From NCBI GenBank assembly GCA_951406725.2, contig OX597827.1, positions 1,674,001 through 1,738,000 on the forward strand: 64,000 nt of DNA, written 5' to 3'. The notes below the pieces were generated by a model. That model worked only from the letters and a program-made list of their open reading frames with translations. It searched no databases and was not told the DNA's origin. The stretch's first letter is position 1, and the number at the start of each line of letters is the position of its first letter. The position numbers were made by a program, and so were the translations under genes. Source of the DNA: Octopus vulgaris (taxonomy: Eukaryota). Below, piece after piece: positions 4,205 through 64,000 of this stretch.

Positions 4205-4460
4205 GTGGAGGCGTGTGGCTTAGTGGTTAGGGTGTCAACACCATGCTAGTAAGATTGTAGTTTCGATTCCTGGACCGGGCGACACGTTGTGTTCTTAAGC
4301 AAAATAGTTCATTTCACGTTGCTCCAGTCCCCTTAGCTGGCAAAAAAGAGTAACACTGCGATGGACTGGTGTCCTGTCCAGCTAGGGAACACATACGCCA
4401 TAGAAACCGGGAAACCGGGCCCATGAGCCTGGCTAGGCTTTAAAAGGGCACCTTAATTTT
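4205..4460 (+). mobile_element. tRNA-derived SINE, family D
   Basis: A box TGGCTTAGTGG, B box GTTTCGATTCC, central 'ctgcgatggactggtgtcctgtccag', tail 'gagcctggctaggctttaaaagggc'. A second copy lies at 52568-52824 (-). Confidence 0.8.
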
Positions 4461-9606: not shown

Positions 9607-10099
9607 TATAACATCAACAACAGCAACCACATCAGCAACAAGAACAACAGCAGCAACAACAATCGTGATTAGAATCTCAGCTACAACCCTGACAACATGA
9701 TCTACCACAACAACAACAACAACAACATCACCAACAGAAATGATAACGATGCAGCTTCAACAGGATTTCTCGACATATTAGAAACAGTAGTCAAATCACC
9801 CTCATATCACATCTTTCTCATCAAAGAAAGGCTTTCCAGCCTTGACCATCTCATTTAATATATCTGCAGCACAGTGTTCCCCAGTAAAACAATATGTTCG
9901 TTGTTTTTAGAAACAGTGCAATGTGAGGGATGTTTGACTCTTATTTCTTCCAGACCATGTGACCAGCGAGAACATCACTGACTTGCTCATCATATTTTTG
10001 TTGTTGCTGCTGTTAATGCTATTGTTGCTGTTGTTGTTGTTGCTATTGTTGTTGTTTCTGTTATTATTATTCATGTTGTTGTTGTTTTTAATATTCATC

Positions 10100-10130
10100 A
10101 TTATTATAATTATTATTATTATTATTATTA

Positions 10131-10179
<49 letters not shown>

Positions 10180-10186
10180 TAATAAT

Positions 10187-10273
<87 letters not shown>

Positions 10274-10286
10274 AATAATAATAATT

Positions 10287-10383
<97 letters not shown>

Positions 10384-10408
10384 TAATAATAATAATAATA
10401 ATAATAAT

Positions 10409-10507
<99 letters not shown>

Positions 10508-10529
10508 TAAAATAATAATAATAATAATG

Positions 10530-10576
<47 letters not shown>

Positions 10577-10648
10577 AATAATAATTAAAATAATAATAAT
10601 AATAATTATAATAATAATAATAATGATAATGATAATAATAATAATAAT

Positions 10649-10693
<45 letters not shown>

Positions 10694-10712
10694 AATAATA
10701 ATTAAAATAATT

Positions 10713-10753
<41 letters not shown>

Positions 10754-10784
10754 AATAATAATTAAAATAATAATAATAATAATG

Positions 10785-10831
<47 letters not shown>

Positions 10832-10895
10832 AATAATAATAATTATAATAATAATAATAATAATGATAATAATAATAATAATAATAATAATAATT

Positions 10896-10936
<41 letters not shown>

Positions 10937-10967
10937 AATAATAATTAAAATAATAATAATAATAATG

Positions 10968-11004
<37 letters not shown>

Positions 11005-11119
11005 TAATAATAATAATAATAATAATTATAATAATAATAATAATGATAATAATAATAATAATAATAATTATAATAATAATAATAATAATAATAATGATAA
11101 TAATAATAATAATAATTAA

Positions 11120-11151
<32 letters not shown>

Positions 11152-11170
11152 TAATAATAATAATAATAAT
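10100..11170. repeat. About 1-kb (AAT)n microsatellite with GAT/TAT/'taattaaaat' variants
   Basis: Seen directly. It accounts for the poly-I, poly-N and poly-Y ORFs. Confidence 0.95.
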
Positions 11171-11173
11171 ATT

Positions 11174-11358
11174 GTTTTATATTTAAGAGATGAGGAATTA
11201 TGCACATTACTTACATTATTTACATTTGACGGATATTAGTCCTCATCTTGTTTATTGTTAACACAACGTTTTGACTGATATATCTTCCAGCCTTCATCAG
11301 GTGTCTTGCGGAAATTTCAAACCTGGGTTCTCATTCCATTATTATTATTTGTTGTTGC

Positions 11359-11391
<33 letters not shown>

Positions 11392-11722
11392 CATTATTAT
11401 TATTATTATTACTATTATTATTATCATTATTCTTATCTTTTTATTTTTTATTATTCAGGTCACTGCCTGGAATCGAAATCAGAATCATGGGGTTAGTAGC
11501 CCGCACTCTTAACCACCATAAGTCCGTAGTGTAGTGGTTAAGAGCACGGGCTACTAACCCTAAGATTCCGAGCTCAATTCCAGTTAGTGACCTGAATAAT
11601 AATAATAATAATAACATCGAAAAATACCTTAGGAATGGGAACCCAGGTTTGAAATTTCCCCAAGACACTTGGTGAAGGATGGAGGGTATATCTGTCGAAA
11701 CATGTTAACAATAAACAAGATG
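11174..11722. mobile_element. Palindromic tRNA-head/(TAA)n/hammerhead element, copy 1
   Basis: Arms are inverted about ~11520. Each arm has a tRNA-like head (GTAGTGGTTAAGAGC...CTACTAA...B box), (TAA)n and an HHR (11260-11305 on minus; 11664-11706 on plus, decayed). Homologous to 63399-63982. Confidence 0.85.
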
Positions 11723-11838
11723 TTAACAACGATCAAACACACACACACATGCACAAACATGTATATTTACATTTCTACACACATGCTAGCATGGACAACG
11801 GACGTTAAATAATGATGATGATTAAATATATATATATA

Positions 11839-41284: not shown

Positions 41285-41915
41285 TATTTAAATGATAAAC
41301 TTCTGGAAAGTTTTACAGATTTTTACAGTTCCAGTGATGGATTGGATCTGTAGTCTTCAAATTAGCTTTCTCCTTTCTGGTTTTGAGAAGCCTAATTTCT
41401 TAAGATTGGTATTTAGGCATTATGTTGCATATCCCAGGGCCCCGATAATTACAGGTATAAACCTGAACTTGTAATCTGCATAGAGTAACTGCAGTTTTCT
41501 CAATAGTTCAGCATAGGTGTTCTATTTTTCACTGATCTTCAGCTTTATGTTAACATCCGTTGGGCAGCCAATTTCGACAACTGTGCAAAGTTTTTCTTCT
41601 CTATCCCAAATCATTATATCAGGTCTGTTGTGCTTACATTTTATTGAGGCCTTCACTGGTACATTCCACCAGTATTCCTTTTTATTATGATTGGCTATGG
41701 CTTCTAGCATATTGTGGGTTCTTATTTTCTAGTCCTCTGTATTATCCTTCCGACAGATTTCATTATAGAGTGTCCTAGCTACAATGTCATGTCTCATCGG
41801 TAGATAATACCGTGATGACATTTTCGGACAACTGCTTATGACGTGGGTGATATCTTCAGTATGAACTCCACAAAGTCTGCATTGGTTGTCACATTTTATG
41901 GCTTTTCCTGCATCC
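41285..41915 (-). mobile_element. R4/Dong-like non-LTR retrotransposon 3' fragment (restriction-like endonuclease)
   Basis: CRLCGVHTEDITHVISSCP (CCHC), RHDIVA, HNRPDIMIWD..VVEIGCP..EK*NTY..IPVIIGALG. Confidence 0.85.
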
Positions 41916-43051
41916 CTTTTGTGCATGTATATATGTATGTATCTGTCTATCACTCTTTGCCTCTCCTTTCAACTAACCATGTGACACATTTAGCCTTAGT
42001 ATATTATAATATGCCTCTCTTCTTTTTTCTCTACTCAGACTTCTCCCCCCACTCTCTTTCACTTTTACTCCACCTCTCACTCACTCACTCCTCTCTAACT
42101 AAAGTATAATGGGTGAACAAACAAGATTATTATACAGATTATTAAAGATCAGGACACAGGTGAAAGCATTCCTATACCTATCAACAGGTAAAAGTTTTCC
42201 TATTTTTGCCATCCATGAGGGTCTTTACAATATTTGAGAGATGGTCATGTGTTGTGTTTGCCCATAGTCAGATATGGTTTACAATTTAAAACTTAATCTA
42301 CTGACTGAAACCTTTTTCTCTCTGTGAAGTGGAGGCCATCAATGAGATTTCTCTGCTGTTTGCAACTCTGTGCAATCAGAAGCAGAGTGGTCTCCATCTT
42401 CTAGGTCTTGTTGGTTGTAAAACTGCTTTTTCCTAGGTTTGCGTGTTAAATGTAAAACCATTTCCTATTAGTCTGGCCCCTGTCCCTTCACTCTGCTGGC
42501 ATAGCTCTCAGAGTCAGTGAGGCACATAAACCACCACAACTGCAACAAGGACTGGATCCTGTCATGGGTAGCTTCAAAAACGTTAATCAATTAGATTGAT
42601 ATTAATGATGATGTTCAAACAGCAATTTTTCAATCAAGCTTTTTATTCTTTTCTGAATTGATCCATGTGTTTAGACACTCAAGTTATAGGAAACTGTTAA
42701 GCTATGGTCTCACTCTACAATTCAGAAATGAGAAGGGTGCTTGTGGTTTGCTTGCTAAGAGTGTCTAAAATAAAAAAGAAACTATTAACTTCAGTTCCAT
42801 CAAGGCACCTCATTTAAATGCAAATATTGGATTGCTCTTTTCTTAGCCCAAAAGGAACCATTATAAAATATGAATGACTTTCTGATACTCTGCTAATAGT
42901 AAATATTTGGTGAAACTTCAGGGCTTCCAAGTAGTATTCCACTGCATCAAATTTGGTAAATCAACAGAACATTTTATTTTATATTCTGCAAAACAACCTG
43001 ATAACTGTGGCACTGCAGTTCAAAGAAACTACTTTTGTAATATTTCTAATC

Positions 43052-48674: not shown

Positions 48675-50750
48675 TATCAAATCCTGAAATTGCCCTCTCC
48701 AGATAAAGGACATTGACATCTTTGAAGCTGATTTAATGACAACCATAAAAAGGTACAATTCCAGCATCTTCCTAACACCTTCTTAAATTCCTCAAACATC
48801 TACATGGTTCAAATTAAACAATCACCTAATGTAAACATTCTTGCCAACAAAACAGAGAACATATATGTAACAAACTCTTCTATACACACCTGACTTCCTA
48901 CAAACACAATCATTGAAACATAAAATAAACTAACTTCTTTAATAAACGCAATGGCATAAGAGTTACTCACCCTTCTAAATACACAAGACTACTACACATC
49001 CTCATCCCTATATCACCTTCAAAGATCATAAGTTTAACGTCCTTTCTAATCTTAAATGTAAGTTGATTAACCCTTCTAAGAGCAAAATAGGAATTGTATG
49101 CAAGTGTGTACACAATACCATCGACTCTAATATTAGGAGGGCTATGGGGTTGATACAATGGGATTGCAGTACCACAATAAATGACTGCTTTTGTAGTATT
49201 GTGAATAAAGCAGCCTGTTAGTTCAAACAGTTTGATATTGTTACTTTCTACTCTTCGACACTCAAATCTCTCCTTCTCCTCCTGGTGGTCTTAGACTTTG
49301 GTAGGCAATTCATCAAAGTCAGTGTCCTTAATATCAGAATCATCATAAATGCTAGATCATCAATCATAGCTCATAAGGATTTCTGTTGGGTAAAGAGGAA
49401 AGGTGACCTGCTGTTCGTTGTATCTTTGAAGAGCTACAGTGGGACTCAGGTCACTAACTTCATCAGTATTTGTCTTGGATATTCTCAAGAAGTGTCCACA
49501 TCCTATAACTTTACCCTGACTTAGAATGATGGTCTGCCAGTCTCAAGCCATAAGAATGGCCACATCGTGGAAAAGTTCAGAAAAGATCTAATTATGATCT
49601 TCAAAAGAATTCAGCCCATCTATAACATCTATGTGACAAACGTTTTACTTTCTAAATGTAACCTTAACCCTTTTAGTATTCAGATTATTCTGTGAAATGT
49701 AGTATTTGTGTATTCATATTGTTTTGAATTAATCATGCATAATCTTGTAACCTAGAGATTTCAATAATGTGATTGTTAAGTTTCTGAAGGACATTGTAGG
49801 GTAGATGTGAGATGTCAGATCTGGCCAGTAGGATATTTAGCTGGATATGGCCTGTTTAAATGCCAAAGGATTAAACTTGAAGACTTGCAAGTATCAACCT
49901 CAAGGAAAACTCAAAGATGAAACTGTTTCCATTCACAGATATTCTAACCACCTCTCCAGTAGTAATTAGAAACCTAGTTACAAGAATAAGTAGAAGAATC
50001 TCTAAGCTACCAGCAAACAGAAATTTTCAATAAGGCTACCCTTAGGGGTGTTAGTGAGGGGTGGATTCATTGAGAAGCTAGTATATATGGAGAACAGCCT
50101 GTCCTATCTCCAAAGCTGAAGTAGGTTAGAACGAGAAAGGTAATCTGGTTTCATTCTCCATTTAACCTGGCTGTTTCAACATAGCTGAGAGCAATCTGAT
50201 ACTAATTACGAGCGCTTTTCTCTAGAATCCATAAATATTATAAATTATTCAATTCCCTCAATGTAAAGATCACTTACTCCTGCTTAGGCAACATTGCTTC
50301 AAATATCGTGTGTTACACTAGATGCAAATACATACCTACAGTTTCTTACCTATACCTCCAGCCTGTGACTGCTGAAATCCTACTAACTGCCCACCGAGAG
50401 GATCTTGTCTCTCAAAAGCTGTAGTTTATTGGGCCACCCTCACACCATGGGATGGCATTACAAGACACTACACAGGCATGACAGCCAATAACTTTTACGG
50501 AAGGTATACACTGTATATTAACTCCTCCCTGTCCCACCTCATCTGCAGAATCTGCAATCATCAAAATGACTCTTCCCAACATCAAATGGACTATCATTGA
50601 CAATTGACAGGGAATTTTTCTTACTTACCTATCACTTGCAATTGTCAACTCTGTCTCAGCAAAAGACTACACATACTTCACCAACTTGCATTGTCCATCA
50701 ATAGGAAGAATGGACTGCCTTAGAGTTATCTTCAGTGAGACACCCTGTTG
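48675..50750 (+). pseudogene. Near full-length, heavily decayed Penelope-like element (RT + GIY-YIG; same type as the 24780 fragment)
   Basis: FEADL, ANKTENIY, YITFKDHK..CKLINPSKSKIG, QFDIVTFYSS, WVKRKG..SYSG, RNDGL, FLNVTL|NL, HRYSNH, VIWFHSPFN, VKITYSC, CDC..CP..SCL..VVY, YTGMT, IKWTI, CQLCL. Interrupted by a MITE at 49664-49874. Confidence 0.85.
49664..49874. mobile_element. piggyBac-like MITE inside the PLE RT
   Basis: TTAA on both sides. Removing it restores FLNVTLNL. Confidence 0.8.
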
Positions 50751-61398: not shown

Positions 61399-61852
61399 GC
61401 ACACGCATTCACACACACACACATTTACCTTCATTAATGTGTAGGGACATAGATATATCTCTGATGGTGAACAGGTATGCAACAAGACCTTTTGCAAGTG
61501 AGAGACCTGAAGTTCTTCTTAGAACATTTCTCCAAGAGACCAATACTCTGTTGCAAAACCTAAACCTGGTTCGGTCCAGTGAGGTGTAGATGAGATTATG
61601 TTCAAAGAAGAGTTAGATGAGTTTTAATCCAACATATCAGATGAATCTATGTTGCTGCAAGAGGCACAACAAATGACAGTTTTGTCCAACTTTCTGCTTC
61701 CAGGGACAGAAACATTTATGCTAAACAAACAATTCTTGCTAACGTTAGTGCCCCAACACGACCACAACCTCTGGCTGAAACCAATGAAAGAATGAATAAA
61801 TACATACATACACAAGCATATATACATATACATACATATATACACATATATA

Positions 61853-62964
61853 TTGGGTTGGCAACTAAGTTCTGCTTTTTTCTTAAATTTTGGAATTTAT
61901 TGCAGTTTTAAATTTTGGAATCTATTTTTTTTTTGAGAATTCTATTTTTGAATCATTTTGGAATCTATTTTGTTTTTTTTCTAGTTAATTTTAGTTAAAT
62001 TTATGTTCAGATCATTAAAATGGAATGTCAAGTTAAGAAAAACAAGCATTTTCGACACCTGTTTGCTTTTAATCAAAGTTCTAAGGCTGCAAAAGCTGCT
62101 CACAACATTTGTGCTGTGTATGGAGCGGGTGCCATAGCTGAAAGAACTGCTCATGATTGGTATGCCAAGTTCAATAATGGAAATTTTGACCTCAAAGACA
62201 CACCTCATCCTGGCGGTTTATTTGAGTTTGATGAAGAGCGATTAAACCAACTTTTGCATGAAAATTCTCATCAAATGACCAGAGAATTGGCAGAGAAAAT
62301 GGAATGCTCCCACATTGCCATAGAGAAGCATCTTCACTCGACGGGAATGGTTCAGAAGTATGGAGCATGTGTTCCGTATGCTTTAAGTAACAACAACAAA
62401 AATCAATGAGCCACAATCTCCGCTGGTTTGCTTGCTTGTCACCACTCAACTCATGGACACAAGCAACAATTTCTTTACTGAATCGTTACTGGTGACAAAA
62501 AATGGTGCCTGTACATCAATATGAAGCAGCGTAAGGAATGGCTTAGCCCCGGTAAACAAGCGACACCATGCGTGAAACAAGATCTTCATCCACGTAAAAC
62601 AATGCACGACAACGCCCGCCTTCATATCACCAATATGACCAAGGAAGCCATTCAAAGACATGGCTGGGAAGTGCTGCCACACCCACTGTACTCTCCTGAT
62701 TTGGCACCAATGGATTTCCAGCTCTTTCGATCTCTTTCAAATGCTATGCATGGAGTTTCGTTCAGTACTGATGCAGAATTGAGAGCTTGGTTGGATCAAT
62801 TTTTCGAGTCGAAATCGAGGAACTGAAAATTTTGTTGAACATTGGGAAGAAGTTGTAAACAACAAGGGTGAATACATTATTGATTAATTAGTTGCTATTT
62901 TTTTATTAAACCTTTTAAAAAATTAAAATTTAAAAAAATGGCAGGAACTTAGTTGTCAACCCAA
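61853..62964 (+). mobile_element. mariner (DD34D) transposon, internally deleted
   Basis: TIRs ttgggttggcaactaagttc / gaacttagttgtcaacccaa with TA flanks. Motifs CVPYAL (WVPHEL), VTGDKKW and HDNARLH..HPLYSPDLAPMD with 34 residues between the Asp. Stops are present. Confidence 0.93.
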
Positions 62965-63398
62965 TACATATGTACATTCATGTATAAATATATGTGTGTA
63001 TATATACATACCTAAATATATATGTATGAATGTATTTTTGTATGTATTTATTCATTATGTGCAACAGAAGTAGCATTAGTTTAAAATTGCAATCTGTGTA
63101 ACATATTTAATGCATATGCATCATAGAAAGTCAAATTAACTGCAGTATTCAGCCCAAAATAACATTTCTTATTGATGTATACTGTTAACTCAAAAATATA
63201 TTATTAGTGGCCAAAAATCCTCCAAAAGTGATGACATTTTAAATGCTAATTTCTGCCTCTTTGGATTTTCATCAGTAGCAAGCACCTGTGGGCAACTGCA
63301 TGCTAAAGCAAAATCCTTTATCATTGTTTTCTTGTTTCAGTGATAGCAGATTTTGACTGCAATCCACTTGGCAATCTGAACATCATTGATAAAGTGGG

Positions 63399-63582
63399 AT
63401 TCAGTTCTATATTTAAGAGATGAAGAATTATGTACATTATTTATATTATTTACATTTGACGGATATTTGTCCTCATCTTGTTTGTTGTTAGCACAACATT
63501 TCGGCTGATATCCTCTCCAGCCGTCATCAGGTGTCTTGGAGAAATTTTGAACCTGGGTTCTGATTCCTAAGGTATTTTTCAA

Positions 63583-63617
<35 letters not shown>

Positions 63618-63754
63618 TCACTGCTTGGAATCAAACTCGGAATTTTAGGGTTAGTAGCCTGTGCTCTTAACCACTTTGCCGTATGCCACAGGCATATGGC
63701 GTAGTGGTTAAGAGCTACTAACCTGAAGATTCCAAGTTCGATTCCAGGTAGTGA

Positions 63755-63829
<75 letters not shown>

Positions 63830-63982
63830 CAACATTGAAAAATACCTTAGGAATGAGAACCCAGGTTCGAAATTTCCCCAAGACACCTGATGAAGGCTGG
63901 AAGATATATCAGTCAAAACTTTGTGTTAATAACAAACAAGATGAGGACAAATATCAGTCAAATGTAAATAATGTAAATAATG
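63399..63982. mobile_element. Palindromic tRNA-head/(TAA)n/hammerhead element, copy 2, with 9-bp TSD
   Basis: Centre gccgtatgcc-aca-ggcatatggc (axis 63688-63690), A box TGGCGTAGTGG, B box GTTCGATTCC. HHRs at 63490-63535 (-) and 63882-63927 (+). TAAAGTGGG at 63390-63398 and 63983-63991. Confidence 0.9.
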
Positions 63983-64000
63983 TAAAGTGGGGCTGTATGG

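Follow-up and report, generated by a model that had tools for sequence, protein, structure and literature searches.

Two head-to-head pairs of a short element

The window, a stretch of 64,000 nucleotides of Octopus vulgaris DNA, contains two loci, at 11174-11722 (copy A) and 63399-63982 (copy B), in each of which a single element of about 280 nt is arranged head to head with a second arm of itself (Table 1). From the axis outwards, each arm consists of a tRNA-like head of about 70 nt with A and B boxes, an (AAT)n run, and a unique body that carries a decayed minimal hammerhead. The two copies are 52.2 kb apart. Copy A aligns with 63474-63983 (E = 7e-137), and its own arms match each other in inverted orientation. 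The long-arm ends of the two copies agree.

Table 1. Positions of the two pairs, their parts and the neighbouring repeat in the window
Feature	Position	Strand	Basis and remarks
(AAT)n tract beside copy A long arm	10129..11171, 1043 bp	.	TRF, 91% matches; GAT/TAT/TAA interruptions recur
Copy A long arm	11174..11522, possibly to 11170	-	arm alignments, profile search
Copy A 3' tail, missing from copy B short arm	11174..11204	-	inverted match to right arm of copy B ends at 11204
Copy A long-arm hammerhead, minimal type I	11260..11305	-	descriptor match, 1 core mismatch; first core box intact, G12->A, palindromic ACGT retained
Copy A long-arm internal (AAT)n, expanded to 118 nt, 17-nt linker gone	11338..11455	-	TRF, arm alignment
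Copy A long-arm tRNA-like head, A box eroded at axis	11456..11522	-	weak ARAGORN match (loop ACT), relaxed threshold only
Copy A axis, diverged, 12 nt shorter than copy B axis	11515..11535	.	read from sequence
Copy A short-arm tRNA-like head, A and B boxes with 1 mismatch each	11523..11594	+	profile search, box scan
Copy A short-arm internal (AAT)n	11595..11614	+	arm alignment
Copy A short-arm body	11615..11722, end blurred to 11734	+	hammerhead at about 11664-11706 decayed: 2 core mismatches, 3-nt deletion
Copy B left 9-bp target site duplication TAAAGTGGG	63390..63398	+	flank comparison
Copy B long arm	63399..63688	-	tail 63399-63434, hammerhead 63490-63535, (AAT)n 63585-63613, head 63614-63688
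Copy B long-arm hammerhead	63490-63535	-	neither core box altered; only 3 pairs in stem I
Copy B axis GCC-ACA-GGC	63685..63693	.	read from sequence; A box starts 63697
Copy B short arm, without tail	63690..63982	+	head 63690-63758, (AAT)n to about 63832, hammerhead 63882-63927
Copy B right 9-bp duplication	63983..63991	+	first 2-4 bases readable as element too

When the window was searched with profiles of the head and of the body, both loci were found to be pairs, all four arms were paired and single arms numbered zero. A fifth arm was not found in the window, where the best other matches reached E values of 0.038 (head profile) and 0.24 (body profile). The pairs measure 550-585 bp, the arms about 280 nt, and the loci are dispersed, as SINEBase requires of short (<1 kb), interspersed and non-tandem elements. 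The head-to-body stretch is 118 nt long in the left arm of copy A, where a conserved 17-nt linker has been lost, and 37, 46 and 91 nt long in the other arms. The axis, taken from D-loop GG to D-loop GG, spans 21 nt in copy A and 33 nt in copy B. The output of a generic repeat finder was dominated by microsatellites, and two GTGACCTG-like matches at 49403 and 49447 were attributed to chance.

These results agree with most of what an earlier, sequence-only reading of the window had described, namely a second inverted copy 52 kb away with a nearly identical long-arm end, a more truncated short arm in copy A, differing (TAA)n lengths, a decayed axis and the position of copy A at the end of a 1-kb (AAT)n tract. 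That reading also held the head-to-head structure to be reproducible rather than a chance double insertion, and the pairing at both loci together with the single insertion of copy B (see below) bears this out. It had further named shared flanks, as after a segmental duplication, and single-arm copies as findings that would speak against it. In the flanks, of which only 9 nt are visible to the right of copy B beyond its duplication, we found just two microsatellite-sized matches (E 0.04 and 0.49), and within the window no arm stands alone.

The tRNA-like head

The A-box and B-box patterns that we used follow the consensus of these boxes. In three arms the distance between the two boxes is 45 nt, and each box has one mismatch except for the eroded A box in the left arm of copy A. 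The right arm of copy B carries a 6-nt deletion between the boxes, and its box pair passes the scan of the window at 63697. Altogether 10 box pairs were found in the window versus 0-2 in five shuffles. The nine others start at 4216, 36260, 56954 and 59817 on the forward strand and at 42704, 43720, 52813, 56031 and 56375 on the reverse strand; they belong to further dispersed repeats, which are probably SINE families of their own with a tRNA-like head.

ARAGORN found no tRNA at its default threshold. At its most relaxed threshold it made weak calls in three of the four arms, with conflicting isotypes, where SINEBase asks for at least 60% tRNA identity over 60 nt. The Rfam tRNA model gave no match at the gathering score in the whole window and none at E up to 10 in either locus. 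On its sequence features, the head is best described as tRNA-like. In copy B, both heads begin no more than about 1 nt from where standard tRNA numbering would place +1, and the shorter axis of copy A represents either another junction or a later loss. Because both promoters point outwards from the axis, each set of Pol III boxes would transcribe one arm only. Runs of at least four T are absent from the sense strand of every arm and occur one to four times on every antisense strand, and the missing runs may merely reflect the A-rich composition.

The body, its hammerhead and its open frame

The body motif is composed of stem I, CTGATGA, a single unpaired nucleotide, a stem II of 5-6 bp with a G-C closing pair, GAAA, a palindromic ACGT and the other strand of stem I. 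A descriptor that allowed at most one core mismatch matched the left arm of copy A and the right arm of copy B as its only two matches in the window; 10 shuffled windows gave two matches in total. In the other two arms, the left arm of copy B keeps both core boxes with a stem I of 3 pairs, and the right arm of copy A has two core changes. The ribozyme is incomplete in every arm, and position 17 is occupied by U, a poor cleavage base at that position of a hammerhead. Rfam gave no hammerhead at the gathering score in the whole window or at E up to 10 in each locus, its matches being unspecific hairpins and snoRNAs. The minimal hammerheads of Penelope-like elements (PLEs), as described by Cervera and de la Pena (PMC4209133), have an unpaired base before stem II, a G-C closing pair, a short stem I and a palindromic 15.2-16.2, and the hammerhead of the window element agrees with them in these traits. 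The same study reports that such hammerheads are also found in pairs on opposite strands, 100-700 bp from each other.

The body also contains an open frame, which spans 49-53 codons in both arms of copy B and is broken by stops in copy A, and which we used solely as a search handle. Its peptide had one named match, an uncharacterised record from Octopus bimaculoides with 79% identity over the whole query, reaching the long-arm end.

Ends, tail and target site duplication

Counted from hammerhead stem II, the long arms continue for 123-124 nt, the short arm of copy B for 88 nt, and the short arm of copy A for about 47-59 nt, its end being blurred between 11722 and 11734. At this blurred end, 11702-11729 holds a 10-bp direct repeat ATGTTAACAA, which is perhaps the result of slippage that replaced the true end. 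A tail of about 35 nt is one-sided, the left 36 nt of copy B having no partner on the right. Within it, 63403-63429 is predicted to fold on its own as a small hairpin. For the anole PLE, the tail has been placed at about 85-119 from the AUG at stem II, and the protein is reported to cleave and extend both strands and to prefer ATT (PMC11167929).

The sequence TAAAGTGGG bounds copy B on both sides and has no other occurrence in the window; among about 20000 random 26-mers, 30 had a 9-mer in common with the left flank. Two related peptides (P0005 and P0026) have the same long-arm end as copy B, which places the duplication no more than about 1 nt from the element. Since one 9-bp duplication bounds the whole pair, copy B entered in one event. 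At copy A no target site duplication was detectable, the best agreement being 3 nt, and a degenerate candidate (TAACAACGA versus the AAT tract) was too weak to be accepted. The duplication at copy B makes the pair the unit of insertion, from which it does not follow that both arms are transcribed as one unit. Accordingly, the proposal of the sequence-only reading that the palindrome is the mobile unit holds for insertion, and its extension to the palindrome as template goes beyond what the two copies show. About 430 bp to the left of copy B, at 61851-62966, lies a decayed mariner, with terminal inverted repeats that match over 21 nt with one mismatch, a Mos1-type HTH (Pfam HTH_48, E 9e-15) and weak similarity to DDE domains.

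The (AAT)n tract and the internal runs

The tract beside copy A consists of 347 triplets, namely 298 AAT, 31 GAT, 12 TAT and 6 TAA. Within it, GAT-GAT followed by a TAA/TAT variant repeats every tens of bases, which suggests an expansion through the duplication of longer blocks. To the left of the tract, at 9998-10135, an opposite-sense (TTG)n and then (TTA)n run turns to (AAT)n at about 10129, so that a microsatellite hairpin lies beside copy A. In the element itself, the simple repeat is internal in all four arms and the 3' ends are unique sequence, where SINEBase describes a terminal simple-repeat tail. Because the repeat is an internal part of every arm and travels along with it, the (AAT)n run moves with the element, varies in length and hence seeds microsatellites. 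Copy A adjoins the tract, and copy B lies in non-repetitive DNA. Of the earlier suggestion that the element targets or seeds (TAA)n, the seeding is thus borne out by all four arms and the targeting fits one of the two copies.

Divergence of the arms

Over 146 aligned columns, the arms differ by 12.3% and 13.7% within the copies and by 7.5, 12.3, 15.1 and 16.4% between them, and the pattern is unchanged when CpG sites are left out. The closest arms are the left arm of copy A and the right arm of copy B (7.5%), which share three states, two of them non-CpG. In a quartet likelihood analysis with RELL on the four arms, the crossed tree received 0.55, the within-copy tree 0.38 and the tree joining long with long arms 0.07, all of them less than 1.2 log units from the star. 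The four arms are therefore not distinguishable from a star tree. The comparison of arm with arm that had been recommended earlier, made here on four arms, too few to be informative, gives within-copy arms that are not closer to each other than arms of different copies.

Relatives and the search for a partner

A full HMMER search of 1.84 billion proteins with the body frame returned 91 short peptides, the longest of 179 aa, and no autonomous partner among them. A search aimed at longer relatives of the frame scored none, and no PLE reverse transcriptase (RT) or GIY-YIG domain was found among the 107 of 127 window ORFs that were scanned. An autonomous PLE has an ORF with RT and GIY-YIG, and the arms carry the frame of 49-53 codons only. 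A weak zf-RVT match at 41732-41968 on the reverse strand (E 3e-4, below the Pfam cut-off) is probably a piece of a LINE.

With a second profile there were 1791 matches, 120 of them listed. The analysed set comprised 201 distinct peptides among the matches listed, with three near-duplicate cluster members left out; 34 of these are closest to the window element (family 1), and the other 167 belong nearest to a different family (family 2), which has the hammerhead-and-tail region in common with it. Family 2 (P0004, P0021, P0059, P0069 and others) is a high-copy family in which retrozyme-like head-to-tail arrays of about 43 codons and head-to-head pairs are both seen. Its units co-vary in the codons of the two stem II strands (odds ratio 2.7, p 0.02, in family-2-like units), which compensatory change that maintains the ribozyme pairing would predict, and shared CpG decay with copy age equally. 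Among the matches listed, 146 family 2 ends were readable, of which 123 coincide with the long end, 17 lie about 10 codons before it and 6 fall at other positions, an excess of long ends that is inflated by a search ranking favouring them. The 22 family 1 ends among the matches listed are blurred, 4 being long, 10 near the short end and 8 elsewhere.

Inversions were seen in 10 of the 201 peptides among the matches listed, all of them head to head and all in family 2. The score threshold for a hidden inversion was 18, the maximum in 180 shuffles being 14.0, and 28 peptides only had sufficient upstream length to show one. In these inversions the sense arm starts between -40 and +10 codons around the hammerhead region, so that the axis is variable. 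In the family 1 peptide P0005, an antisense body match stands directly before the sense hammerhead, without a head, with a marginal score of 15.8. Head-to-tail tandem units occur in 25 of the 201 peptides among the matches listed. By analogy, this mixture of tandem, inverted and tailed forms is as PLE papers describe. The two pairs within 64 kb and the 34 family 1 peptides (among the matches listed) suggest a high copy number.

Predicted duplex RNA and possible editing

In the predicted folds, copy A forms 178 cross-axis pairs with a longest helix of 28, and copy B forms 234 pairs with a longest unbroken helix of 47. Relative to 100 dinucleotide shuffles each, the z scores are -25 for copy A and -38 for copy B, and none of the shuffles folds as well. 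If Pol II read through an inserted copy, the RNA would plausibly form a duplex of 180-230 bp open to ADAR, as a side effect. The duplex of about 250 bp that had been expected agrees with copy B and is overstated for copy A. A host exon indicating read-through was not identified among the 107 of 127 window ORFs scanned. In the substitution table of the copies, a search for an A-to-I footprint gave mostly CpG and scattered changes in a small sample. Octopus and frog have been reported as highest in long dsRNA potential (PMC5625713), and in squid the ubiquitous edits are described as falling on repeats (PMC9068888).

Proposed mechanism of insertion and alternatives

Considering the anatomy of the arms, their pairing, the one-sided tail and the target site duplication of copy B, all of which can be read directly in the window, we think it fairly likely that the element is a non-autonomous, SINE-like element, probably transcribed by Pol III and mobilised by PLEs, and that the palindrome is a product of integration and not an RNA template. 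The pairing would be most simply explained as the known inverted insertion product of PLEs, by analogy with these elements, a connection that the sequence-only reading did not draw. Three features expected of a non-autonomous PLE are present. The minimal type I hammerhead is decayed, and it is matched by the descriptor in two of four arms with both boxes intact in a third. A 36-nt tail is found at one end of copy B, and family 2 has two preferred ends about 10 codons apart. A 5'-adjacent inverted copy is seen at both window loci and in all 10 inversions of the relatives among the matches listed. On the other hand, no partner RT was found in the searches above, and all 10 strong inversions among the matches listed belong to family 2, which is a different family.

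In the proposed mechanism, the unit would comprise the tRNA-like head as an internal Pol III promoter, the (AAT)n run, and then the hammerhead-and-tail module of a PLE pseudo-LTR. Pol III would copy one arm from the axis outwards, and a PLE protein with RT and GIY-YIG would bind the 3' hammerhead-tail module in trans. Both strands of AT-rich DNA would then be nicked about 9 bp apart, and each nick would prime reverse transcription, where a distal start would give an arm with the tail and a proximal start an arm without it. Because the RNA is short, both cDNAs would usually reach +1 and be joined head to head, so that the palindrome would be rebuilt at insertion. Given dependence on PLEs, we consider this twin priming to have slightly better than even chances. 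For the last steps, self-priming on an antisense template, as proposed in PMC3846280, would be an alternative. A broader form of the preferred reading would see a true Pol III tRNA-derived SINE that parasitises PLEs and not LINEs, is abundant in octopus, inserts by priming on both strands a fold-back of 500-600 bp as its default product, and thereby acts as a genome-wide factory of ADAR substrates with a sizeable part in the dsRNA load and hyper-editing of octopus; we regard this as possible but doubtful.

A fixed palindromic master could also be the template, that is, a dimeric element propagated from read-through RNA, probably by a PLE RT, with the arms as separate lineages. The closeness of the left arm of copy A to the right arm of copy B, which makes the crossed tree marginally best, is the main result in favour of such a master; the axis lies at the head in both copies, and PLEs are reported to mobilise unrelated sequence between pseudo-LTRs in trans (PMC3846280). 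However, the crossed tree beats the star by only 1.2 log units with the within-copy tree still at 0.38, and complete copying of a single-arm RNA would equally place the axis at +1. The outward promoters, the known habit of PLEs and the variable axes of the relatives, namely those of family 2 and the marginal headless inversion of P0005, all argue against it, and a hairpin of 230 bp would be a poor template for RT, so that we judge a palindromic master unlikely.

The other explanations concern the kind of element and the way in which its arms came together. A LINE-dependent tRNA SINE, whose arms were paired when another copy inserted into the first or next to it, or through a local inverted duplication, would share the tRNA-like head and the trinucleotide run with SINEs in general, nine other A and B box pairs lie in the window, and SINEs are given as 11.6% of the O. 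vulgaris genome (PMC13282606). Such an origin is very unlikely in our view considering that all four arms are paired, that one duplication bounds all of copy B, that the simple repeat is internal and that the 3' end is a hammerhead with an optional tail. Long inverted repeats and duplications of about 9 bp are also features of Mutator-like elements, and a fold-back MITE of a DNA transposon would fit the long inverted arms, the missing coding capacity and the 9-bp duplication; but the ends are not the mirror images that terminal inverted repeats would form (36 unmatched nt at the left of copy B), relatives show head-to-tail arrays and two preferred 3' ends, and the arms carry tRNA-like and hammerhead modules, which leaves a MITE only a very slight chance. 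Palindromes can be mis-assembled, and the right flank beyond the duplication of copy B is visible for only 9 nt. Nevertheless, a segmental duplication or an assembly artefact is scarcely credible against flanks that differ, arms that diverge by 7.5-16.4% and the same body in an O. bimaculoides record.

Comparison with known systems

For the PLE-mobilised, SINE-like element that we prefer, several parts are known, namely the inverted architecture of Penelope elements, the combination of Pol III promoter and hammerhead in Schistosoma, and short elements that depend on PLEs. In the octopus, Ohshima and Okada are said to have described three tRNA-derived retroposons in 1994, and Albertin et al. 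reportedly described a 'Twin' SINE in 2015. We suppose that 'Twin' could be the family of the window element, and its name might refer to paired copies. These octopus SINEs come from the same host group and have a tRNA-like head. The element may accordingly already be catalogued under an octopus SINE name, in which case the gain would be a corrected mechanism and not a new family. In the available text of the literature searched, which included cephalopod repeat papers, a PLE parasite from octopus with a tRNA-like head and head-to-head arms is not described.

The way in which the inverted insertions of PLEs arise is called unresolved in the literature (PMC8557442). With a short element whose RNA start is set by an internal Pol III promoter, this question becomes testable by alignment alone, where the position of the axis, the side on which the tail lies, the length of the duplication and bases diagnostic of one arm tell twin priming apart from self-priming on an antisense template and from a palindromic master. 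If the element is a SINE that parasitises PLEs, the many copies of it would decide by which route Penelope inversions arise. SINEs are by definition LINE-dependent in SINEBase (PMC3531059), and a tRNA-headed PLE parasite would therefore widen the class. Short elements that depend on PLEs are already recognised (PMC8969392). Considering that PLEs, for which a library of 190 O. vulgaris consensus sequences exists, are reported to make up 6.83% of that genome, besides the share of SINEs given above (PMC13282606), an element that inserts hairpins could matter for the editing of repeats in cephalopods. The palindromic Harbinger repeat of Xenopus tropicalis is likewise a self-folding repeat and is heavily edited there (PMC5625713); it is a DNA transposon with demonstrated editing, where the octopus element is a putative ADAR substrate.

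The hallmarks of PLEs include an inverted 5' copy, a one-sided tail of 30-40 bp and a bias to microsatellites (PMC8557442), and rotifer PLEs are described with head-to-head junctions and duplications of 8-10 bp (PMC3846280). The pseudo-LTRs of EN+ PLEs (Penelope/Poseidon, Neptune and Nematis) have, like the element, a minimal hammerhead near the 3' end and a tail of 30-40 bp similarly far from stem II (PMC8557442, PMC4209133, PMC11167929). They also have a head-to-head inverted copy, duplications of 8-10 bp and AT-rich or microsatellite targets (PMC8557442, PMC3846280, PMC11167929). In contrast to these PLEs, the element has no RT or endonuclease ORF, its 5' part is the tRNA-like head with (AAT)n, and both arms of copy B are full length, where PLEs have one arm truncated at the 5' end.

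Metazoan non-LTR retrozymes and other non-autonomous PLE derivatives, such as MRC1 of Chlamydomonas, are also short and non-coding, carry a type I hammerhead and are proposed to depend on PLEs (PMC7229834, bioRxiv 10.64898/2026.07.22.740005, PMC8557442). Retrozymes are described there as head-to-tail tandems, whereas the window copies are dispersed inverted pairs with a tRNA-like head, and tandem units occur only in the family 2 relatives (25 of 201 peptides among the matches listed). The SINE-like retroposons Sm-alpha and Sj-alpha of Schistosoma have a Pol III promoter followed by a hammerhead, as in the element, but are described as tandem repeats, and the available text of that source does not describe inverted pairs or an optional tail (PMC6765202). 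On the one hand, the element is not an autonomous PLE, having no ORF of that kind, nor a retrozyme, not being tandem, nor a MITE, its ends being asymmetric. On the other hand, its 3' module points to PLEs and not to LINEs and, apart from the terminal simple-repeat tail of SINEs, which it does not have, it resembles a SINE, and its insertion looks like that of a PLE.
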